A stretch of 10,364 nucleotides of DNA, taken from Abditibacteriaceae bacterium. GTDB taxonomy: Bacteria > Armatimonadota > Abditibacteriia > Abditibacteriales > Abditibacteriaceae. A program made the translations under genes and the position numbers. Shown here one piece after another: positions 1 to 10,364 of this stretch. Each line of letters opens with the position of its first letter. The first letter of the stretch is position 1. The stretch covers positions 1 to 10,364 of the forward strand of contig JANMKN010000172.1 of assembly GCA_031372065.1 (NCBI GenBank), read 5' to 3'. The notes below the pieces were generated by a model that was given only the letters and a program-made list of their open reading frames with translations, was not told where the DNA came from and did not search any database.

Positions 1-1485
1 CAAAAACGGAAACTCTTCGTCGCGCTCCCAGTTGGCGTATTCTTTGGCTACAAGGCGCGCCATCGGGCCGTAATCTTTAAGCCATTGCGGATCGAGAAAC
101 CCCAAAAGCGCCGCCGAGGTGGTGAAATAACCGTAGTGAAATTGATGATCGTTATATGCTTCGCTGCCGTAACTGGTATTGAAACCAACGAGGGCTTTCC
201 ACTTGTCGTAGCGCGCAAAATAATGCGCTTTTTCGCCCGGCGTGTAAGAGAACCAATCGGTCAGCGCGGTTTTTAAGAGGGCGCGCAATTTATCAAGCGA
301 AGGGTCGCCTGTCGCTTGCGCGGCCATCATATATTGGCCCAGTTGCAACAAACTTTTGCCGCCCCAATATGTGTCGCCGCCGTATTTCTCTCTGGTCGCA
401 TAACGCGCTAAATAATCGTTCATGCGTGCCGCGTCGAAGTCATGGGGCAAGCCCGTTTTTTGCGGCGCGGGCAAAAACGGCGGCACGCCGTTGAACCCAT
501 AAATGATGCGAAAATCGGTGCCAATCGCGCATTTCATGTCGCCGCGCGGCGTGCGATAGCCGATGTTTTCAAATTTCAAATTATGAATCGTATCGCGCCA
601 GTGATGCGGCAAGAATCCTTGAATCGAATTTTTCTCGGTGCCTTTGAGCGCTTCGGTTGTTAGGTGCCAGCCGGTTGTCACTTGGGCTTTTTCGGGCTGA
701 TAAAGCCAGTTCATCTTGCTATCGCGCGGAATGGCGTAAGCATATTTGCCAAAGGCAGACAAACTTGCTTTATTCGGCAGCGGGCACAGCACCAAATACG
801 ATTTTCCGGCGGCGAATTGGATTTTTACTTTGTCGCCTTCGAGGACGAAAAGCGTGTTATCCGGCGTGTAAATTCCATAGTTTCGTCCGGCGTATTCGAT
901 GCCGATTTGATCGCCGGAATACGGAAATTTAATTGCGGCGTTTTGCGCGTCGAAAAATTTTGCATCAATGGCGCTTTGAATGAGCGGCGCGAGGTTTTTG
1001 CATTCGAGCCATACATACGGAATGCCGCGCCCGATGGTCACGTCCCAGTATTTGTCGGCATTTTCCGCTTGGCGAAAAGTGAGAGTCCAATCGCCCCAAG
1101 TTTTGGCGCGCGCATCCTGCGGCTTAAAATCAGCGCCCGAAATCTTCAAAGGGCCATCGCTAATCGGGTCGCGTCCTTCGTCGTTCCATTTCACGGGATA
1201 AGCGAATTCTATCCCGTTTTCATTGGCTTTAATTTGATGCGGAAACGCCCATAATTGACCGGCGAATTTATCCACCAGCAAATTCGTCCACCAACCGTTA
1301 GTTGGCAGGGCGCGCTTATCGTCCAGCGTGTAAAGCGGGCGTTCAAAAACCGCTTTTACTTCTTTGCTTGGGTCGGGCGGCTGCGAGGCATATGAGCCTT
1401 TGCCGACAGGAACTACAACAACTTCTTGAGATTGAACGCAAGCGGCGCAAAGTAGCAAAAGGGCAATTGGGAATTTCAAATTCAT
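1..1485 (-). CDS. Secreted glycoside hydrolase family 81 (endo-beta-1,3-glucanase); 3' end truncated by the window edge (495 codons visible)
   Basis: Manual translation gives an uninterrupted minus-strand frame from ATG 1485 to base 1. It starts MNLKFPIALLLLCAACVQSQEVVVVPVGKGSYASQPP (signal peptide) and contains GH81-typical motifs LPTNGWWTNLL, VTIGRGIPYVW, YAYAIPRD, QGFLPHHWR, YRTPRGDMK, DTYWGGK, YNDHQFHYGYF (124-156) and YANWERDEEFPFL. The ATG overlaps the TGA of the upstream gene (ATGA, 1482-1485). Confidence 0.93.
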   Translation of the reverse strand, partial: MNLKFPIALLLLCAACVQSQEVVVVPVGKGSYASQPPDPSKEVKAVFERPLYTLDDKRALPTNGWWTNLLVDKFAGQLWAFPHQIKANENGIEFAYPVKWNDEGRDPISDGPLKISGADFKPQDARAKTWGDWTLTFRQAENADKYWDVTIGRGIPYVWLECKNLAPLIQSAIDAKFFDAQNAAIKFPYSGDQIGIEYAGRNYGIYTPDNTLFVLEGDKVKIQFAAGKSYLVLCPLPNKASLSAFGKYAYAIPRDSKMNWLYQPEKAQVTTGWHLTTEALKGTEKNSIQGFLPHHWRDTIHNLKFENIGYRTPRGDMKCAIGTDFRIIYGFNGVPPFLPAPQKTGLPHDFDAARMNDYLARYATREKYGGDTYWGGKSLLQLGQYMMAAQATGDPSLDKLRALLKTALTDWFSYTPGEKAHYFARYDKWKALVGFNTSYGSEAYNDHQFHYGYFTTSAALLGFLDPQWLKDYGPMARLVAKEYANWERDEEFPFL

Positions 1486-2588
1486 GGCGTGCTTAGTTTT
1501 CCATCAATCGCCCACAGTCCAAAAGTGCCGTTGATTTTGGCACTTGTTAAGGCCGTGACGGTGTTCTCATTTTTGGCAAACAGCGAATTCCACTGGCCTT
1601 TTTCGTTTTTCGGAAGTTCAAAAGGCACCGAACGCATAGCGAAGTTTTTCGCGTTTTGGTCGCCGATGTAAACAATCATTTGCGGCGCACCGGGGCGCGC
1701 TTCATCGCTTTGACAGGACAGCAATGTCGCGCCGTTTTTCAAACGAATCAAATAAGGCGCACCCGCGTAAATTTTATCAGGCCAATTAGCAACAGCGCTT
1801 AAGCGACGCGGGCTTTGGGCATCAGCGGGCGGGCTATTCCAATCGAAATTTGGCGACGCATAAATAATGGCGGGCTTGAAATTTCCGTCTGGCGAAATCC
1901 CATTATCTTCGATGGCAACGGCCACCCTGCCATCGGGAAAAACCAGCGGCACGGGCATTCCATCGCGGTGATGAGCGCGAAAACTAAAAGCGTGCGGCGC
2001 CTGCCAATTGTTGCCGTTATCGCGCGAAATCATCAGCGAAATTTGCTGCTCATCCGATTTGGTAAACGGGCCTTCATCGGCGAAAAAGAGCAAGATTTCG
2101 CCCGTTGTTAATTGCCGCGCGCACGGTTCCCAGCAACCGGTTTCAAAAGTTGTTCCGGCTTCATAAAGCGGCGGAGTATTTTGCCACGTCAAACCATTAT
2201 CCAGGCTGCGCGCCATACTGATAACAAAAGCATGATTGCCGTTTTGATATTCTTTGCGAGGGCGCACATTGTAAAACAATAGAACGTCGCCGTTTTGCAA
2301 TTGCAAAAGTTCAGGATTGGCCGCGCTGCTAAAATCGCGGCGCGCCACCAAAACCGGCGCTTGCCAGCTTCGCCCTTCATCGTCACTGCGTCTCACAAAA
2401 CTCGCGCCGCGTTTTTCGTAGCAGCATAATAACCCGCCGTCTTTCAAACCAACGATGCGTCCGTAACCACCACCCGCTTCGATGAGAGTCAATGTTGACT
2501 TGTCCCACACGATTTCGGGTGTTTTCGCTGTTGCCCGCGCGCAAACCGCGCCCAGCAGGAACAGGGCGAGAGAGAGTTTAGAGTTCAT
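1482..2588 (-). CDS. Secreted BNR/Asp-box beta-propeller glycoside hydrolase (clan GH-E; GH93-like, often auto-annotated 'sialidase family protein'), 368 aa
   Basis: The track ORF is 1482..2633, but ATG 2588 gives a clean signal peptide (MNSKLSLALFLLGAVCARATA). Asp-boxes: SDDEGRSW, SLDNGLTW, SRDNGNNW. GH93-type motifs: CWEPC, FFADE, RDGMPVP, VAIED. No sialidase RIP motif seen. Confidence 0.8.
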   Translation of the reverse strand: MNSKLSLALFLLGAVCARATAKTPEIVWDKSTLTLIEAGGGYGRIVGLKDGGLLCCYEKRGASFVRRSDDEGRSWQAPVLVARRDFSSAANPELLQLQNGDVLLFYNVRPRKEYQNGNHAFVISMARSLDNGLTWQNTPPLYEAGTTFETGCWEPCARQLTTGEILLFFADEGPFTKSDEQQISLMISRDNGNNWQAPHAFSFRAHHRDGMPVPLVFPDGRVAVAIEDNGISPDGNFKPAIIYASPNFDWNSPPADAQSPRRLSAVANWPDKIYAGAPYLIRLKNGATLLSCQSDEARPGAPQMIVYIGDQNAKNFAMRSVPFELPKNEKGQWNSLFAKNENTVTALTSAKINGTFGLWAIDGKLSTP

Positions 2589-2613
2589 AGATATTAGCGA
2601 AATTGGCGCGCGG

Positions 2614-2656
2614 AATGACAGCCGCCGGAGCAAACGGCAAATACAGGGCTGTCATT
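2614..2656. repeat. Perfect 10-bp inverted repeat with nested inner stem (intergenic)
   Basis: AATGACAGCC (2614-2623) pairs with GGCTGTCATT (2647-2656). The 23-nt spacer contains GCCG-gagcaaa-CGGC (2624-2638). Confidence 0.7.
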
Positions 2657-2686: not shown

Positions 2687-4903
2687 TCAATCGTTCGGCT
2701 TGTAAACGCCGATGATTTCTTTAGGGAACGAGGTGGATTTCCAACTCAGTTTGATACTGGCTGCGGTAGCAGGGCCTTGCACATATTCGATGATTAAATC
2801 GTGCGGGCCTTTTTTGAGGAAGTAACCTTTGCTGGCTGGCGTGCTTTTTTGCACCCACCAGATGTCAATGATCTTTTTGTCGTCGAGATAAAGGCGCCCG
2901 GCGTCGTCAAGTTCATCGAAATAAAATTCGTAAGTATCATCTTTGGGCACGAAGATGCGGCCTACAGCTTTCATGCTCCAAAATGTGTGGCGCATTCCTG
3001 TGGCGGGCGGGTCGGTGCCCCAATTGAAATTGAGGATTGGCGAAGTCTTTTTCGCGACGGATTTTGTAAAAGTCGGCCAGTCAATCGCATGACCGGGATT
3101 GAAAGTCGCGTCCGGCAAATCGGGATGGTCCGCAGTGTCTTGAAAGAACTCAATTTGAAAACCCGGCGCCCAAATGCCGCGCCCGATGGAATTTTCGCCT
3201 TCGATTTCACGTTGCGCGCCGGGACGCACACGATAAGGTCGCCCTTTGATGCCGCTGCCATTGCCAGCGTCGCCGTCACCATTGCCGCCACCACCTGCCG
3301 GGCCATCACCGTTACCGCCACCGATGCCTTTTCCATTTTCACCCGAACCCTTGCCGCTACCCGTTCCAGGGCCTTTGCCAAAGCCGCCCGCACCACGGCC
3401 CGGCCCGAAGCCACCTCCGGCACCACGCCCGCCGGAGCCGCGTCCGGCGCCATTACCTTTGCCGTCGCCAGGGCCTTCGCCGCCGCGCATCGCTAAAAGT
3501 GGGCCTTTGCCCGGCCCGTCGGGGCCACCACCTGTGCCGCCACCGCCGTTGCTGCTGACGCCGCGCGAGCCGTTGGGGTCGCCAAATGGGTCTCCTGCAA
3601 CGCGGCCTCTGCCGCGTCCGTTGCCGCCACCGAAACCACCTTTTCCGGCGCCATAACCACTACCGTTTCCACCACCGAAGCCGCCGCCCGAACCACCGCC
3701 GCCGCCCGCGACTTCGCCACCGTTGCCGCTACCGCGCGGTCCGCCAACGCCCGCGCCCATGCCGCCACCGATGCCGGGGCCAACTTTGGTATTCAACGCG
3801 CCACGGTCTGCGCCTGCCAAGCGTGTTCCGATGCCTTTGCCGCTAATATTGCCCGCGCCACCGCCGCGCCCGCCGCCTTGACCGCCCGCCAAACCGGGCG
3901 AAAGGCCCGGCGCGTTGACGGCGACAGCCGTATCAGATTTACGATTCAAAATCGGAAAGAAGGCATCGTCGCCCCCGCCGCCCCCGCGTTTTGCCAAACG
4001 ACGCGGCAAATTGGCGCCGCCGCCAGCATTGTTGCCCGCTAATTCAGGATTAACGCCATTGAGCGAACCTTTGTCGGGATTTGGGCTAAAATTGCCGCTT
4101 GAACCGCCGCCGGGACGCCCCAAACCGCGCAGATTGCTGGCAAGTTTGCCGGACGCCAAATCGTTGCGATTGGCATCGGGACGGCCATTGTTCAAGCCTT
4201 GCGGCAAGGGCGTTTCGGGCTTATTGTTTTGGCCGCCGGTTTCGGACTTGTTGAACGGGTCATCGTTCGGGCTGGAGCCGCGCGATTTCACTTTGCGCGT
4301 GTTCGGATCGTTTTTGCCTTCGCCCGGCTTCAAATTGCCGGATAGCGCGCCTGCTTCCTCATCAAATTTGGGTTTGGCGGGCGCTTTCGGCGCGCCATCG
4401 CCCGTTTTGTTGAGCGCCACGCGGCCCAGCGTTTTTTTTGGCTTGGTTTCCGGCTTTTGCGGCGCTTTTGTTGGTTGCGCTGTGGGAATCGGCTTGAGTT
4501 TTTTGCCTTCGTTGGCTTCGGGTGTCGGCATCGCTGTCGGCTGTGGCTTGACGGCGACGGCCTTTTTCGTCGGAACTGGTTTCGGTTTTTCTTTTTCCGG
4601 CGTCGGCATGGCTGTTGGTTCTGCCGTCGGCATTGGTGTCGGTTCGGTAGTGGCAGCAGGTGTTGGCTGCGCTGACGGTTCAGGGGTTGGCTTCTCGGAT
4701 GGCTTTGCTTTCGGTTTTTCCTGCTGCAATTCCACGATCATCAACTTTTCAGCGGGCGGCTGCGGCGCTTCCGATAGGAAATACAGCAGCGTCAGCATAG
4801 CTGTGTGCGCCACGATGGAGACGCCCGTAGCCCGCGCCCATAAGGGGCGACGCTTTTTGGACGGCGTTTCAGAATTTGGTGAAGAAGCGGAATTTTGCGT
4901 CAT
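2687..4903 (-). CDS. TonB/TolA-like energy transducer with a C-terminal PA14 domain (738 aa)
   Basis: Single N-terminal TM helix after KKRRP with S29-H33-L40-S44 (SIVAHTAMLTLLYFLS), matching the 4/7/4 spacing of the TonB/TolA SHLS motif. Pro/Lys/Glu/Thr-rich segment (about aa 46-155), Gly-rich segment (about aa 255-555), then aa ~581-738 with PA14 hallmarks: GFQIEFF, LNFNWGTDPP, FWSMKAVGRIFVPKDDTYEF, LDDAGRLYLDDKKIIDIW, LKKGPHDLIIEYVQ, IKLSW. Lies directly downstream of exbB-exbD. Confidence 0.85.
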   Translation of the reverse strand: MTQNSASSPNSETPSKKRRPLWARATGVSIVAHTAMLTLLYFLSEAPQPPAEKLMIVELQQEKPKAKPSEKPTPEPSAQPTPAATTEPTPMPTAEPTAMPTPEKEKPKPVPTKKAVAVKPQPTAMPTPEANEGKKLKPIPTAQPTKAPQKPETKPKKTLGRVALNKTGDGAPKAPAKPKFDEEAGALSGNLKPGEGKNDPNTRKVKSRGSSPNDDPFNKSETGGQNNKPETPLPQGLNNGRPDANRNDLASGKLASNLRGLGRPGGGSSGNFSPNPDKGSLNGVNPELAGNNAGGGANLPRRLAKRGGGGGDDAFFPILNRKSDTAVAVNAPGLSPGLAGGQGGGRGGGAGNISGKGIGTRLAGADRGALNTKVGPGIGGGMGAGVGGPRGSGNGGEVAGGGGGSGGGFGGGNGSGYGAGKGGFGGGNGRGRGRVAGDPFGDPNGSRGVSSNGGGGTGGGPDGPGKGPLLAMRGGEGPGDGKGNGAGRGSGGRGAGGGFGPGRGAGGFGKGPGTGSGKGSGENGKGIGGGNGDGPAGGGGNGDGDAGNGSGIKGRPYRVRPGAQREIEGENSIGRGIWAPGFQIEFFQDTADHPDLPDATFNPGHAIDWPTFTKSVAKKTSPILNFNWGTDPPATGMRHTFWSMKAVGRIFVPKDDTYEFYFDELDDAGRLYLDDKKIIDIWWVQKSTPASKGYFLKKGPHDLIIEYVQGPATAASIKLSWKSTSFPKEIIGVYKPND

Positions 4904-4924
4904 GACAACAGATTAATGGGCAAC

Positions 4925-5362
4925 TTAATTTTCTGGCAGGCGCGTGCCGAGCGCGACTTTGGGCAGACCGGCTTGTTTCGCCATGTCCATCACTTGCACA
5001 ACGCGTTTGTATTCAATGTTGGCGTCGCCTTTGATAATCACCGGCGTCGCGTTGTTTTTGGCCGCGTAACGAATCATCGCCGCTTGCACTTTGGGAATCG
5101 TGCTCTCCTGCGTGTTCAAGAAAATCTTGTTGTCGCGTGTGAGAGCAATCGTCAGTTCGTCCGCTTTGTCGGACGCAGTTTCGGTGGATTTAGCAGTTGG
5201 CAGTTCCATCTTCAAGCCGGATTCTTTGACGAACGCCGTGGTCGCCATGAAGATGATGAGCAACACCAACACAATGTCCACTAAAGGAATAATATTGATT
5301 TCGGCCATTGGCGCGCGGGCGCGACGACCTCTGCTGCCGTGTGGTTGAATGTGCATTCCCAT
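4925..5362 (-). CDS. exbD: Biopolymer transport protein ExbD/TolR
   Basis: Has the signature AEINIIPLVDIVLVLLIIFM with the essential TM Asp, plus VIIKGDANIEYKRVVQVMDMAKQAGLPKVAL. Follows exbB by 10 nt. Confidence 0.95.
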   Translation of the reverse strand: MGMHIQPHGSRGRRARAPMAEINIIPLVDIVLVLLIIFMATTAFVKESGLKMELPTAKSTETASDKADELTIALTRDNKIFLNTQESTIPKVQAAMIRYAAKNNATPVIIKGDANIEYKRVVQVMDMAKQAGLPKVALGTRLPEN

Positions 5363-5372
5363 GATAAATCTC

Positions 5373-6026
5373 TCAGGCTTCGTTTTCTTCGACGCCAGCC
5401 TTCATGGCGGGCAAACGCGCCGCGAGTTTCAGGGCATGGTTTTCAACGTGCAGGCTTAAATCGTTGACGCGCCCGCTGAAGTAGTTGAACGCCATAACAG
5501 CGGGAATCGCCACGCCGAGGCCCACGCCAGTGGCGAACAAGGCTTCCGAAATGGGCTTGGCAACCGCCGAAGCGCCGGTTTGATTGGTGCGCGCGATTTC
5601 CGCGAAGGCGTTCAAAATGCCCAACACTGTGCCGAATAAACCAACATAAGGCGCCGTGGACGCAATTGTGCCCAAAATCGGCAGATTGCGGCCCAGTTCG
5701 GCGCATTGGATTTCGATTTCTTGCGTGATCGCTTCGTGAACCAAATCGGGATGGCTGTCACGCAATTCCAAACCAGCTTGCAACGCCGTGGCGGAAGGCG
5801 CCTGTGAAGCGGCTACCGTTGCGCGCAAGGCTTGATCTTGATTTTTCAAAATCATGTCGCGCAAGACGCCGAAATCGCTGTCTTCCACGCGCCGAACGCG
5901 CTTAAGCGTCATAGCCCGCTCGAACATAATGCCGACCGAGACAATCGAAAATATCACCAGGGTAAGAAAGGCCAGCGGCACTAAAAATTTTGTGGTGCCG
6001 ATAGCCGAGGCAATCATTTGCTCCAT
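5373..6026 (-). CDS. exbB: MotA/TolQ/ExbB proton channel protein
   Basis: Three TM segments; signatures LGTIASTAPYVGLFGTVLGILNAF and ISEALFATGVGLGVAIPAVMAFNYF, with the conserved Thr residues present. Confidence 0.95.
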   Translation of the reverse strand: MEQMIASAIGTTKFLVPLAFLTLVIFSIVSVGIMFERAMTLKRVRRVEDSDFGVLRDMILKNQDQALRATVAASQAPSATALQAGLELRDSHPDLVHEAITQEIEIQCAELGRNLPILGTIASTAPYVGLFGTVLGILNAFAEIARTNQTGASAVAKPISEALFATGVGLGVAIPAVMAFNYFSGRVNDLSLHVENHALKLAARLPAMKAGVEENEA

Positions 6027-6110: not shown

Positions 6111-6857
6111 TTAATTCACAAAAGCGCGGCTCACTGTTTTCAAGACCAGTGTTGGGTCGCAACCATAAAGGCCTGAACCATAAGCCGGATTGGCTTCGAC
6201 AACGGCCCAACCTCGTTCGGCAATGATGCCCACATCTAACACGCACACAGACAAAGAATTTTGAGATAGCACAAGTCGCGCGAAATCTTGTGCGTTTTGG
6301 TTTTCCTCGTCGCTCATCGGCCACCAACCATCTTCACTTTCCGCTGTTTGGGCGCCGCGCCAATAAGGAGACAACGTTTGCACTTCGCCGTCGCAAACGA
6401 AGCAACGAAATTCAACTTCCCATTGCACCGGCTCGGAAATTAAAACGGGCGTATCGTCCGGTAGCCAATCTAAAGTGGGCAATGCAGCGCCGTTTGCGTA
6501 AATCTGCGCCGCGAAAGTTTTTTCGCTCGCAGGTTTAATAAATGCTGGTTTTTCGATCCGCCCTGCCTCGTCTAATGTGGCGAATTGCACTTCGCGTTTG
6601 CGCAGTTCAACGGGCAAGCGCGCTAAAAAACCCAAGGGCGGTTCGATAGGGTGTAAACGCAGCGCCTCGGCAACAAAAGACACAAAAAGTGGTTCGCCAT
6701 AAAGCGCAATGCCGTCGGACAAATCGCGCTGGAGCAATTCCTCTGGCACGCGCCAATTGGTCATGCGAAGGATGTCCCAATTAGCCGAGAGAGCCGCACG
6801 CCACAGGGCATTGGAATCGTCTGTGTAGCGCGGCGGCAACACCAAAAGCGGCGCCAA
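6111..6857 (-). CDS. ATP-grasp domain protein, R2K clade (DUF4343 / R2K_3-like), 248 aa
   Basis: TTG start 1 nt after the TPR gene stop. ATP-grasp motifs FIKPASEKTF, EFRCFV, VLDVG and VVEANPAYGSGLYGCDP (ExN). The N-terminus LVLPPRYTDDSNALWRAA resembles this family. No signal peptide. Confidence 0.8.
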   Translation of the reverse strand: MAPLLVLPPRYTDDSNALWRAALSANWDILRMTNWRVPEELLQRDLSDGIALYGEPLFVSFVAEALRLHPIEPPLGFLARLPVELRKREVQFATLDEAGRIEKPAFIKPASEKTFAAQIYANGAALPTLDWLPDDTPVLISEPVQWEVEFRCFVCDGEVQTLSPYWRGAQTAESEDGWWPMSDEENQNAQDFARLVLSQNSLSVCVLDVGIIAERGWAVVEANPAYGSGLYGCDPTLVLKTVSRAFVN

Positions 6858-6858
6858 A

Positions 6859-9675
6859 TTATTCCAACTCTTTCATTTTGGCTTGCGCTTTGGCCGTTAA
6901 ATCTGTTGCTGGTTGGCGCGCGGCGAGTTTTTTATAAAGCACTAAAGCATCGCCTTTGGCGCCGCTGTTTTCCAGAGATTGCGCGGCTAACCATTGCGCT
7001 TGCGAAAACCATGCGGTTTTTTCGTCCAATGTGGCCAAGGCTAAAAGCGGTGCGGCTTCGGCGTATTTCTTTTGATTGAAAAGCGCCTCACCCAAACGAA
7101 ATTGCAGTTCGGCTTTGATGGCGCCTTCGGCTTTGGGCAGGGCCGACTGATAAACTGCGGCGGCTTTGATCGGGTCAGAAACGCTTTGGCCCCAGCCCAA
7201 ACGCGCGGCGGGCAAATAGGTTTTTAGTTCCGTCGGCACGGCTGTGTTATTGCCTTCGACATTGGTGACAAAGGCTTCATAACGCGCCGCTGCTTCGCTT
7301 AATTTTCCGGCGCGGCGATAACTATCGGCGGCCCAATAAGGTGCTTCCGGCGCGAAGGCGGTTTTGACTTTGGCTTCGCCGGATTTGTCGAAAGCTGTCG
7401 CGGCCTCGGCCCATTTTTCGGCGTTGTAAAGCACTGTTCCCAGTTGATAATTGGCGCGCGGCGTGAGATCGCTTTGCGGGTCTTTTTCGGCAGCGCGACG
7501 ATAAAAACCGGCGGCTTCGTCCCATTTTTTAGCGGCCAAAGCCACTTCGCCTTGTTGATAAAGCGCATCAGCGGCGCGCTTGCTATTCGGAAAATCGCGT
7601 TCCAAACGCGCCCAGCGCGCGGCTTCATCGGCGCTTTTCTGCTCGCGGAGCAGCCACGCGCTTTCATACAACGCGTCGGCGGCGAAATCGCCTTTCGGGT
7701 CGGCGGCGATAGCGGCATCATAAGCGGCTAAAGCACCGTTGTTTTTAATTTTGCCCAGCGCGTAACCTTGATGAAACAGCGATTCCGATTTAGTTTTTGG
7801 TTCTGTTGAAGCCGTCGCAAATTTGGCCCATTTTTCCGCTGCGCTTTGCCAATTTTCCTGCTTTTCGAGCGCAAAAGCGCCGCCTTGCAAGGCTTGCGCG
7901 GCGATGGCTTTGTCTTTGGCACTTTCCACAACGGCGAACGAAGTCGCAGCTTCTTTGTTTTTGCCGCCGTAGTATTGCACGCGCGCTAAAGTCAATTGCG
8001 CGTTGTCTTTGAGGTCGCCTGTGAGCAATGTGGCGGCATCGCGCGCGGCGCTTTCGGCATCGGCCCATTTTTCGGCGTCTTCCAAAGCCCACGCGAGGCC
8101 GAGTTTGGCTTCACCGGCCAATTTTCCTTTGGGAAAGGCCGCGATTTGCTTGCGAAAAGCCTCTGCCGCGCCCGCGTCTTTGGCGCTGAATTTCGCCCGC
8201 GCCACGAGATTTAACGCGCCTTCTTGCGTGTCGGTGTCAGGTTTGGCGTCCGCGACGCTTTGCGCGAGTTGCGCGGCTTTGGCCCACTCTTCTTTATCGA
8301 AAGCAGCCTGCGCCATTTGCAATTTCGCGCCGCCGATGAGGTTGCCGGGCAAGTCTTTGATGACGTTTTCGATGGCGCTGCCCGAAGTGCCCGCCAAATA
8401 TGCGATGCCGTTTTTGGCATCGGCGGCTTGCTCGGATTTTTCGTATTTTGTCAGGACGATTTTATAGGCTTCAGCGGCCTTGACGGGGTTTTTGGCTTGC
8501 GTCCACGCGTCGCCCATGCGCAGCGCCGCTTTGGGCGCCAAATCGCTCGTCGGAAAATTGTCCACCACTTTGGCATAATTGGCCGCAGCGTCGGCGAATT
8601 TGTTTTGCGCGAACTGCGAAGCGGCGGTGAAATACAGCGCGTTGGCGCCTAAAGTGGCTTCTTTGTTAGACAAAATCGGCGCATAGGCGGCCACGGCAGC
8701 CTCATAATTTTTGGCGTTGTATTGACTGTTGCCCAATCGCAGTTGAATGGTGGCGCGGCGTTTGTCATCGGCTTTGAGCGCGTTCAAAACTTGCGTGTAA
8801 CCTTGCGCGGCGTCGGCCCAGTTTTTCTGCGTGAAATCTACGCCCGCTTGTCCCAGCAATAAATCAGCTTTGTAGTTGCTTGTTTTCGTGTCGGCAAGAG
8901 CGGCTTTGTAGGCGGCTTTCGCTTCGTCGGGCTTTCCGGCGGCGGCTAAGGCATCGGCCAAGCGCACGCGCGCTTCGGGCGCGGCATCGGCTTTTGCATA
9001 TTTGGTGACGACGGTTTGAAACGCAGTCACGGCCTCGGCAGGTTTGTTGTCATCCATCGCCATCACGCCGATTTCCATCACGGCATCGGCAGCAGGCGGG
9101 TCGCTTTCGGCGTAATTGTCGCGGATGCGCTCGAAAACAGCTTTGGCGCCTTTGAAATCTTTTTGCATTTGGCGCCCTTTGCCAATGTAATAATTGGCCC
9201 ACGCCGCTTTGTCCGTGGCGTCCTGCCCCGCGCCGGGATTTTTCAAAAAATCAACCAATGGCGCGATGGATTTATCGGGCTTGTCGAGGAAAAAATAGGC
9301 TTCGCCGAGTTCAAAACGCGCCGCGTTGACGATTTTCGGCTCGGCATCGCCGTATTTTTGCAGCGCCGTTTCGTAGGCCGCCGCAGCGGAGGCATAATCT
9401 GGCCCTTTGTTGTCTTTGTCGGTGCGATAAATCGCCGCCGCGTATTGATAGGCGGCGATTTTGGCCTGCGGATGTGTCGGATTGGCCTCCACGAATTTCT
9501 TCAAACTTTGCGCCGCGAGGCTATAAAGTTTGCCCGCGTAAAGTTCGCTGGCGTATTTGTATTGTTCGTCCGGCGTGTCCGCCAAAACGGGCGCGGCGCA
9601 CGCCCCGCAAATCAAAAGCAACGCGCCGATTTTCACTTTCGTGGCACAGCGCAAAATGTTCTTTTCCTGTCGCAT
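6859..9675 (-). CDS. Large secreted tetratricopeptide-repeat protein (CpoB/BamD-type repeats), 938 aa
   Basis: Signal peptide ending ..GACAAPVLA|DTP. The rest is tandem ~37-aa helical repeats with recurring '[FY]Px[SG]xxAxxAxxxLG' turns, e.g. DNFPTSDLAPKAALRMG, AAFPKGKLAGEAKLGLA, RDFPNSKRAADALYQQG, KDPQSDLTPRANYQLG. SD AGAGGT lies 9 nt upstream. Confidence 0.92.
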   Translation of the reverse strand: MRQEKNILRCATKVKIGALLLICGACAAPVLADTPDEQYKYASELYAGKLYSLAAQSLKKFVEANPTHPQAKIAAYQYAAAIYRTDKDNKGPDYASAAAAYETALQKYGDAEPKIVNAARFELGEAYFFLDKPDKSIAPLVDFLKNPGAGQDATDKAAWANYYIGKGRQMQKDFKGAKAVFERIRDNYAESDPPAADAVMEIGVMAMDDNKPAEAVTAFQTVVTKYAKADAAPEARVRLADALAAAGKPDEAKAAYKAALADTKTSNYKADLLLGQAGVDFTQKNWADAAQGYTQVLNALKADDKRRATIQLRLGNSQYNAKNYEAAVAAYAPILSNKEATLGANALYFTAASQFAQNKFADAAANYAKVVDNFPTSDLAPKAALRMGDAWTQAKNPVKAAEAYKIVLTKYEKSEQAADAKNGIAYLAGTSGSAIENVIKDLPGNLIGGAKLQMAQAAFDKEEWAKAAQLAQSVADAKPDTDTQEGALNLVARAKFSAKDAGAAEAFRKQIAAFPKGKLAGEAKLGLAWALEDAEKWADAESAARDAATLLTGDLKDNAQLTLARVQYYGGKNKEAATSFAVVESAKDKAIAAQALQGGAFALEKQENWQSAAEKWAKFATASTEPKTKSESLFHQGYALGKIKNNGALAAYDAAIAADPKGDFAADALYESAWLLREQKSADEAARWARLERDFPNSKRAADALYQQGEVALAAKKWDEAAGFYRRAAEKDPQSDLTPRANYQLGTVLYNAEKWAEAATAFDKSGEAKVKTAFAPEAPYWAADSYRRAGKLSEAAARYEAFVTNVEGNNTAVPTELKTYLPAARLGWGQSVSDPIKAAAVYQSALPKAEGAIKAELQFRLGEALFNQKKYAEAAPLLALATLDEKTAWFSQAQWLAAQSLENSGAKGDALVLYKKLAARQPATDLTAKAQAKMKELE

Positions 9676-9875: not shown

Positions 9876-10364
9876 TTAAGGCGATGGCGTGGTCGGCGTG
9901 TGATGTCGCGTGGCGCGTTCGACATGGCTGGCGCTTGTCCACGCCGCTAAAACCGTGGGTTGGGTGTGATATTTGTTGCGAATAATGGCGTCCAGCTTAT
10001 GCACGGCCAGAACACCCGCTAAAAGGGCGTCGTCCAGACCTTTGGTGCCCGCGACCTGCGAATCGAGCGAGCTACCCTGCGTGCCTTCGGCGGCCTCGAA
10101 AACGGCCAAATCGTGCGTTAAATCGGCCAGAAAGTCGGCGCGGATTTCGTAGGCGATGAACTCGGCTTCCAGCGGCGTGGCGTCTCTCAAAAAGGCGCGA
10201 GCCGTCGTTTTCAGCGTCTCATCGCCATGATTGCGCGGACGGCGGAATTTGGCTTCGATGCCGGGTATTTCGTCGGCCATTGAATGCGCCGTGCGGGCGA
10301 TGGCATCAATATCCTCGTGCAAGTCCAAATACGCCTGCGCTTTGGACGAAGTGCCGCTATGCTG
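9876..10364 (-). CDS. Hypothetical alpha-helical protein, 5' end beyond the window
   Basis: The frame stays open past the track's TTG (10328) to the window edge: QHSGTSSKAQAYLDLHEDIDAIARTA... It is Ala/Asp/Leu-rich and helical-looking, ending LDAIIRNKYHTQPTVLAAWTSASHVER plus a short Pro/Thr tail. Confidence 0.75.
   Translation of the reverse strand, partial: QHSGTSSKAQAYLDLHEDIDAIARTAHSMADEIPGIEAKFRRPRNHGDETLKTTARAFLRDATPLEAEFIAYEIRADFLADLTHDLAVFEAAEGTQGSSLDSQVAGTKGLDDALLAGVLAVHKLDAIIRNKYHTQPTVLAAWTSASHVERATRHHTPTTPSP

Follow-up and report, generated by a model that had tools for sequence, protein, structure and literature searches.

The Ton and Tol transducers of the papers drawn on here act on a protein strand, and in the solved complexes the Ser and His of the transducer touch a Ser and a Trp on the first transmembrane helix (TM1) of ExbB or TolQ and a Pro on TM3 (PMC12905483). 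In 2025 Williams-Jones and co-workers used comparative genomics and modelling to describe a further class of arms, with a transmembrane His, a motor box, a linker and a vWA head, encoded after a gene for TPR repeats, one resembling tolQ and one resembling tolR (PMC12204202). For a motor of this kind that moves carbohydrate, the closest precedent is Agl-Nfs of Myxococcus, which shifts spore-coat carbohydrate via carrier proteins (PMC3858216). Here I analyse a stretch of 10,364 nucleotides (the window), one whole contig (JANMKN010000172.1, assembly GCA_031372065.1) of an Abditibacteriaceae bacterium from the phylum Armatimonadota, whose genome assembly measures 6.1 Mb and is 94% complete. Its exbB and exbD genes are followed by an open reading frame (ORF) for a 738-residue membrane-anchored arm with a PA14 domain at its end, and the predicted system is a PA14-tipped form of the vWA force-transducer class proposed in 2025. 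In the reading that I prefer, at a probability of roughly 35%, the ExbB/ExbD-type motor would engage the arm, the PA14 tip would bind sugar via calcium, and the motor would tug on a glycan, likely one of the cell's own envelope. The features on which this reading draws are the following.

6859..9675, minus strand: TPR protein of 938 residues, repeats throughout (Pfam TPR families), with a signal-peptide-like N-terminus, likely periplasmic; heads the conserved cassette
5373..6026, minus strand: ExbB/TolQ-family motor subunit, 217 residues (PF01618, E = 8e-33)
4925..5362, minus strand: ExbD/TolR-family motor subunit, 145 residues, with transmembrane Asp D29 (PF02472, E = 5e-32)
2687..4903, minus strand: membrane-anchored arm of 738 residues, a predicted force transducer with transmembrane helix, box, Pro-rich and Gly-rich linker and PA14 tip
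4772..4819, minus strand: S29-x3-H33-x6-L40-x3-S44 in the single predicted helix (residues 21-43); the His33 codon is at 4805-4807
4727..4750, minus strand: D-box-like hydrophobic strand, residues 52-59, just after the transmembrane helix, a predicted ExbD contact (alignment conservation and position)
4349..4717, minus strand: Pro/Lys/Thr-rich segment, residues 63-185, 24% Pro
3239..4033, minus strand: Gly-rich segment, residues 291-555, 45% Gly, with short conserved motifs and no confident structure
2690..3181, minus strand: PA14 domain, residues 575-738 (PF07691, model and Foldseek)
2903..2908, minus strand: D666-D667, aligned with the DcisD pair (two Asp joined by a cis peptide) of the RsgI3 PA14
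2777..2785, minus strand: Y707 and Q709, by alignment the supporting Tyr and the third calcium ligand (the Gln of calcium-binding loop 2, CBL2) of the PA14 sugar site

A first-pass annotation, made from the sequence alone, had already proposed the order exbB, exbD, arm, and the family matches and ORF coordinates bear it out, on the minus strand; the anchor residues and the Asp pair also lie where it placed them. The conserved TPR gene upstream was absent from its description. The arm has what characterises a transducer with a non-TonB head: the transmembrane His, the box (by position and pattern), the linker, the head, and synteny with TPR, tolQ-like and tolR-like genes. It shares with the vWA arms an SHLS-type His helix, the motor box, a Pro-rich or disordered linker, a head other than that of TonB, and the gene order, and it differs from them in its PA14 head, in a linker about five times longer and in a single exbD where they have a pair; the Armatimonadota, moreover, lie outside the list published for that family (PMC12204202). 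Taken strictly, the arm is therefore not a vWA transducer, its head being PA14, although both the motor lineage and the window's genome include vWA arms. The first-pass annotation knew of no characterised system with this architecture. For the PA14 form this stands, as the 2025 paper has no PA14 in its main text or in the one supplement searched (PMC12204202), and the published literature searched, with limited coverage of subscription papers, gave no description of a PA14-tipped motor arm; for the general plan it does not, given the vWA-headed arms of 2025.

With TonB-ExbB-ExbD the locus has in common the motor families, the SxxxH helix, the D-box-like strand and the Pro-rich segment (PMC12905483, PMC10907165), but it has no TonB_C domain (no PF03544 match), as the first-pass annotation had expected, and no adjoining TonB-dependent transporter; the class has its true TonB loci on different ExbB branches. 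Its subunits are nearer those of Tol-Pal, and the repeats bring its TPR protein above the TIGR02795 cut-off (170 bits against 90, NCBIfam), whereas TolA domain III is lacking (the NCBIfam TolA model reaches 12 bits against a cut-off of 59, again as anticipated) and neither TolB nor Pal scores above cut-off in the 94% complete genome. I rejected CpoB as an identity for the TPR protein, which is 938 residues of repeats. The tip resembles the PA14 modules of RsgI3 and RsgI4 from cellulolytic clostridia (6QE7, 6QDI; PMC6852018) and MpPA14 (PMC8092209) in fold, DcisD pair, CBL2 Gln and Tyr, and RsgI is likewise membrane-tethered (PMC6852018); unlike these, it is a single domain with another CBL2 sequence, linked to a motor and without an anti-sigma domain. 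The Agl-Glt and Agl-Nfs machineries of Myxococcus also combine a TolQR-like motor with TPR proteins and swappable partners, but in those machineries protein complexes, as carriers of the polymer, are what the motor moves, and GltG contains FHA and TonB domains (PMC3858216, PMC3169522). In the present locus the lectin fold belongs to the transducer itself, with no linked gene for an outer-membrane partner. Literature on motility and envelope of the family yielded nothing usable.

Motor, anchor and calcium site

The 738-residue ORF is no assembly chimera, a possibility that was rejected because one contig of a possible source sequencing run spans it fully and without differences and because full-length homologues exist. 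The subunits upstream have the residues of a proton motor, namely the transmembrane Asp in the small one (D29, invariant in 27/27) and two pore Thr and the TM3 Pro in the large one. ExbB S27, T133, T166 and P175 align with TolQ S28, T145, T178 and P187; the TM1 Ser is kept in 18/18, and the TM3 Pro and both pore Thr are also kept. Both subunits score closer to TolQ/TolR than to ExbB/ExbD; for the large one the NCBIfam tolQ model gives 133 bits and exbB 93, both below cut-off.

The arm's His33 is kept in all 18 PA14 arms and in 28/28 arms when the vWA arms are included, and four positions before it stands S or T in 18/18 PA14-arm orthologues (S in 14). As a check on chance, 4653 six-frame ORFs of at least 200 residues were taken from the genome, and two have an exact SHLS pattern in a hydrophobic N-terminal stretch: the window arm and a related vWA-tipped arm. 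The full-length AlphaFold2 model has a single helix at residues 21-43, no confident structure over most of residues 52-572, and a terminal beta-sandwich. After the helix and a Pro-rich turn comes the hydrophobic strand of residues 52-59, conserved in the alignment of PA14 and vWA arms; it matches the position of the TonB D-box, which ExbD binds, with a similar though not identical pattern (PMC10907165). A profile was built from 28 N-termini of PA14 and vWA arms, none of them from a TonB, and its three best matches in the genome are the window arm, an orphan arm with a vWA head at E = 4e-8 and, at E = 3e-4, the one protein with TonB_C. This supports a predicted homology between the arm's anchor and that of the TonB_C-bearing protein. 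By analogy with Ton and Tol, the helix would dock on TM1 of ExbB via Ser29 and His33 while the strand is caught by the ExbD dimer, and coupling of the arm to the motor in this manner is highly likely.

In this genome there are two exbB, three exbD, one TonB_C, four TonB-dependent transporters, three Omp85 and three SLH matches, and at both exbD sites a PA14-tipped arm follows. The four transporters and the one orphan TonB need a motor, and it could be argued that the arm is a membrane-tethered lectin, encoded in one operon with a motor that serves that TonB alone, and uncoupled from this motor. This is the least probable of the alternatives, and a distinctly poor one: the invariant His and the box are common to the arm and the orphan TonB, the position of the arm after exbD is fixed, and the cassette occurs where no TonB_C or transporter was found. 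The PA14 cassette holds the only exbD in two genomes (G170 and G221; 89% and 84% complete) and the vWA cassette in two others (G059 and G134; 92% and 87% complete), and in none of the four was TonB_C or a TonB-dependent transporter found; within what such incomplete genomes can tell, this suggests that the cassette has a job apart from TonB-dependent uptake.

The two orphans merit description. The vWA arm, of 551 residues (contig C324, L142:1763-3415, plus strand), has the exact SHLS, the same box, a Pro/Gly linker and the vWA head, on a 3.7-kb contig without motor genes. The orphan TonB (contig C368, L145:5153-6415, plus strand) has the TonB_C domain, shares the arm's anchor and box, and is divergent from a gene for an 1177-residue protein resembling a PA14-bearing protein of contig C175.

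As for the tip, PF07691 matches residues 610-725 (E = 4.6e-16, 59 bits against a cut-off of 24), and the AlphaFold2 model of residues 572-738 has a confidence (predicted local distance difference test, pLDDT) of 93 and matches the RsgI PA14 modules, yeast adhesins and MpPA14, so that the C-terminal domain models as the PA14 lectin fold that had been proposed. The best Foldseek matches are 6qe7 (E = 4e-9) and 6qdi (E = 1e-8), and phmmer aligns the tip to the pectin-binding RsgI3 PA14 (6QE7) at E = 6e-22. In that module calcium is held by D86, D87 and Q130, and in RsgI PA14 domains the cis-peptide is tied to a Tyr that precedes the CBL2 Asn/Gln by two residues; a PA14 module without the Asp pair does not bind pectin (PMC6852018). 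D666, D667, Q709 and Y707 of the arm match the RsgI3 site and are invariant in 16/16 orthologues, which supports a complete putative DcisD-Gln calcium site. Since these residues match and are invariant, the tip very probably binds sugar via calcium.

Exchange of heads on one motor lineage

The PA14 domain was matched in 150 of 301 genomes of the phylum, and those of its close relatives that have a name belong, for the whole PA14 protein, to the Abditibacteriaceae or Abditibacteriota. A search of representatives, swamped by multi-PA14 proteins (20822 matches at E 0.001), was left unused for distribution. Twenty loci were fetched, picked by score and ORF length; exbB-exbD lies directly upstream in 17 (one with a split frame in the arm), in agreement with the linkage that the first-pass annotation had asked for, and the other three are other PA14 proteins. 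The TPR gene stands upstream in 15 of the 17 orthologous loci, the remaining two ending at contig edges, and the cassette spans four families, the window's own included. A further 40 exbD loci of the class comprise 10 with vWA arms, 16 with TonB_C (one weak), eight of a type with two exbD (a PA14 tip seen in five, three cut off), one DUF4159 arm, one unassigned arm, three cut off and one lone exbD. Forty exbD loci picked in other classes gave four PA14 arms (two with an adjoining vWA arm), 11 vWA arms alone, four DUF4159-like arms (calls that rest on a one-sequence profile), 12 TonB_C and nine cut off or unassigned.

In the ExbB tree (65 rows after removal of 28 redundant or unassigned loci; midpoint roots only), the motors of PA14 and vWA arms form one group of 36 rows with support 83 and no TonB_C locus inside, and within the family the vWA loci are a branch nested among the PA14 loci. 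A single clade of vWA-locus ExbBs (13/32 rows) is rejected by the approximately unbiased (AU) test, p-AU = 2e-10, for a group that was named after the tree was seen; a single clade of tip PA14 domains (21/52 rows) is rejected too (p-AU = 0.0003). On these trees PA14 reached the arm tips more than once, and PA14 and vWA heads have been swapped repeatedly on the same motor lineage across the phylum. A first tree had suggested PA14 as the ancestral head, a proposal that was dropped, as the wider tree with its midpoint roots leaves the order of events open. The metal ion-dependent adhesion site (MIDAS), which I take to consist of DxSxS and an Asp further on, is seen in 22 of 23 vWA heads; with the MIDAS kept in these and the calcium site in PA14, both head types are, as far as their residues tell, metal-bridged gripping domains.

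This exchange bears on what is gripped. As the heads interchange with a MIDAS-type vWA, thought to bind protein, as TonB, TolA and GltG act on proteins and as the TPR partner is conserved, the PA14 tip might bind a protein, through a calcium-bridged acidic residue or another surface, and the motor would pull on that protein. I consider this unlikely: sugar-binding PA14s have three calcium ligands and a supporting Tyr, and here all four are invariant; moreover, the recruited PA14s come from different subfamilies, as would be expected of a common sugar chemistry more than of a single protein interface. The wider proposal, that a Ton/Tol-type proton motor puts force on carbohydrate directly via a calcium lectin carried by its transducer and that the Armatimonadota employ a single motor as an all-purpose periplasmic puller replacing Tol-Pal, fitted with interchangeable tips (PA14 for glycan, vWA, TonB_C), is tentative and falls a little short of an even chance.

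Some loci depart from the common arrangement. In L108 and L110, TPR-exbB-exbD precedes both a PA14 and a vWA arm, after which comes an NlpC/P60 protein. Arms with DUF4159-like heads (L066, L121, L137, L138, L141) sit on other ExbB branches, and L065 encodes an arm of 1038 residues whose head has no Pfam match but a PA14-like Asp-Asp pattern. In four loci of one family (L109, L111, L112, L115) additional vWA genes or other large neighbours adjoin the cassette, and a 668-residue protein family recurs in L103, L112 and L115. The TonB_C proteins of the class (L078-L090) mostly have SxxxN instead of SxxxH in the membrane helix.

Pull, linker and possible targets

In the mechanism that I propose for the envelope reading, D666, D667 and Q709 would hold calcium and, in the periplasm, engage a terminal sugar diol, and proton flow would reel in the arm and so move or tension the bound glycan, a step that is likely once coupling and sugar binding are granted. 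The target would be a glycan or glycoprotein of the envelope, on which the system would act in a role like that of Tol, and the periplasmic TPR protein would scaffold or splint the long linker. This is the weakest step, although I lean towards it, and the splinting in particular is a guess. That direct force on a glycan is the function at all, whatever the target, has even odds.

Several observations weigh against this reading. The first-pass annotation had pointed out the exact SHLS pattern; it is present in the window arm but occurs in only two of 18 orthologues, L40 and S44 not being conserved, and as a key signal it was rejected in favour of His33, the only invariant position. Searched against the PDB, the N-terminal profile finds TolA at E = 0.13, level with unrelated light-harvesting helices. 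In ExbB the TM1 Trp is replaced by V31; I rejected this as a defect, since the TonB_C-linked ExbBs of the class (16/16) lack the Trp too. The Asp-Asp pair also occurs in 26 of 31 PA14 domains located elsewhere than on arm tips and hence marks an intact site only, not tips specially, and no evidence points to a particular glycan. From His to tip the span is about 450-630 residues in the nine reliably measured rows, against 100-300 residues in TolA and TonB and about 100 in the published vWA arms (PMC12204202), and it models as disordered. With a disordered Gly-rich linker, TolA passed on sufficient force to take up colicin but too little to stabilise the outer membrane (PMC10666116), and a single bond between PA14 and sugar is weak, with a dissociation constant of about 150 uM in MpPA14 (PMC8092209). 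A long flexible linker and a weak lectin bond together argue against strong force.

The linker was earlier described as a TonB-like Pro-rich spacer. This holds for about 120 Pro-rich residues, but not for the roughly 370 that follow, 265 of which are 45% Gly. Over residues 217-572 the pLDDT is below 50; the Gly-rich region has no structure in the full-length model (built on a 16-row alignment), by which a polyglycine bundle is neither supported nor excluded, and an Atlas search with residues 270-575 gave no usable match. The orthologue alignment has short conserved motifs within the linker. With a linker so long and flexible and a bond so weak, the arm could dock on the motor and transmit little force, glycan binding serving to position the motor or to gate proton flow. 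The best structural match would suit such a tether or sensor, as the RsgI PA14 sensors report polysaccharide, and the same motor probably also serves the orphan TonB and the orphan vWA arm. Yet the arm keeps the box proposed to transmit force, and its cytoplasmic N-terminal tail has only about 20 residues and no signalling domain, and I regard this account as improbable too.

A long linker would also suit a long stroke, as in the import of a nutrient polysaccharide that enters via an outer-membrane pore, is gripped by the tip and is reeled in without a TonB box. The closest solved PA14 relatives bind pectin and xylan, the tip's nearest relatives in these genomes sit on large proteins with lectin-like domains, BNR and GH81 genes lie downstream in the window, and an alpha-galactosidase follows the second type of PA14-arm locus. 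But the BNR and GH81 genes are beside the cassette in the window only (61 loci compared), and were rejected as a guide to the ligand; elsewhere on this motor lineage a vWA head stands in PA14's place; and when 47 loci of the PA14/vWA type were clustered, their shared genes were TPR, exbB, exbD and arm only, with no transporter, glycosidase or pore gene conserved beside the cassette. Import is thus also unlikely, and an envelope target is favoured over it because no substrate-specific gene travels with the cassette and because the subunits score nearer TolQ/TolR while the Tol-Pal partners were not found. An NlpC/P60 gene after the cassette in L108 and L110 also speaks for an envelope role.

If a lectin tip is pulled in this way, it would extend these motors from protein strands to carbohydrate targets, and could reveal by what means diderm Armatimonadota that lack a recognisable Tol-Pal energise the envelope. 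It would also make the transducer class of 2025 tractable, as the binding chemistry of PA14 is known, a two-residue null mutation is at hand and the ligand could be found by glycan array. One homologue is named from strain IAD-21 (P0015), which is listed as an isolate (PMC7154957), so that a cultured host may exist.

Other genes of the window and genome

On the minus strand the genes of the window follow each other in the order TPR, R2K ATP-grasp, exbB, exbD, 738-residue ORF, BNR-repeat and GH81. Those outside the conserved cassette are as follows.

6111..6857, minus strand: R2K-clade ATP-grasp gene between TPR and exbB, a passenger (PF18299, E = 4e-34)
1-2633, minus strand: BNR-repeat protein and a GH81 glucanase-like gene that runs off the contig
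9876-10364, minus strand: ORF of about 150 residues without a Pfam or NCBIfam match

The R2K gene was rejected as part of the system, lying outside the conserved cassette: it is found within it in the window and in one of 60 other loci (L033). A scan for promoters and terminators gave no excess over shuffled sequence, and a search of viral contigs gave one marginal match of 17 residues, which was disregarded. An ORF resembling that at 9876-10364 occurs at C311:1257-1949 of the genome, likewise upstream of an exbB.

The second motor locus type of the genome (L143:1-6896, plus strand, contig C4; L144:105-776, minus strand, contig C311) consists of exbB, two exbD and an arm of 1510 residues with an SxxxN helix and a PA14 tip, followed by ankyrin and alpha-galactosidase-like genes; there are eight more such loci in the family. 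The genome's sole OmpA-family domain lies at the end of a 618-residue protein with an N-terminal hydrophobic stretch (L146:2881-4734, plus strand, contig C404), which is not a Pal-like lipoprotein. Finally, large PA14 proteins (L147:671-3955, minus strand, contig C175; L092, L095-L101), several with signal-peptide-like starts, combine DUF6250 or 3-keto-disaccharide-hydrolase-like domains with one or two PA14 domains of the tip subfamily.

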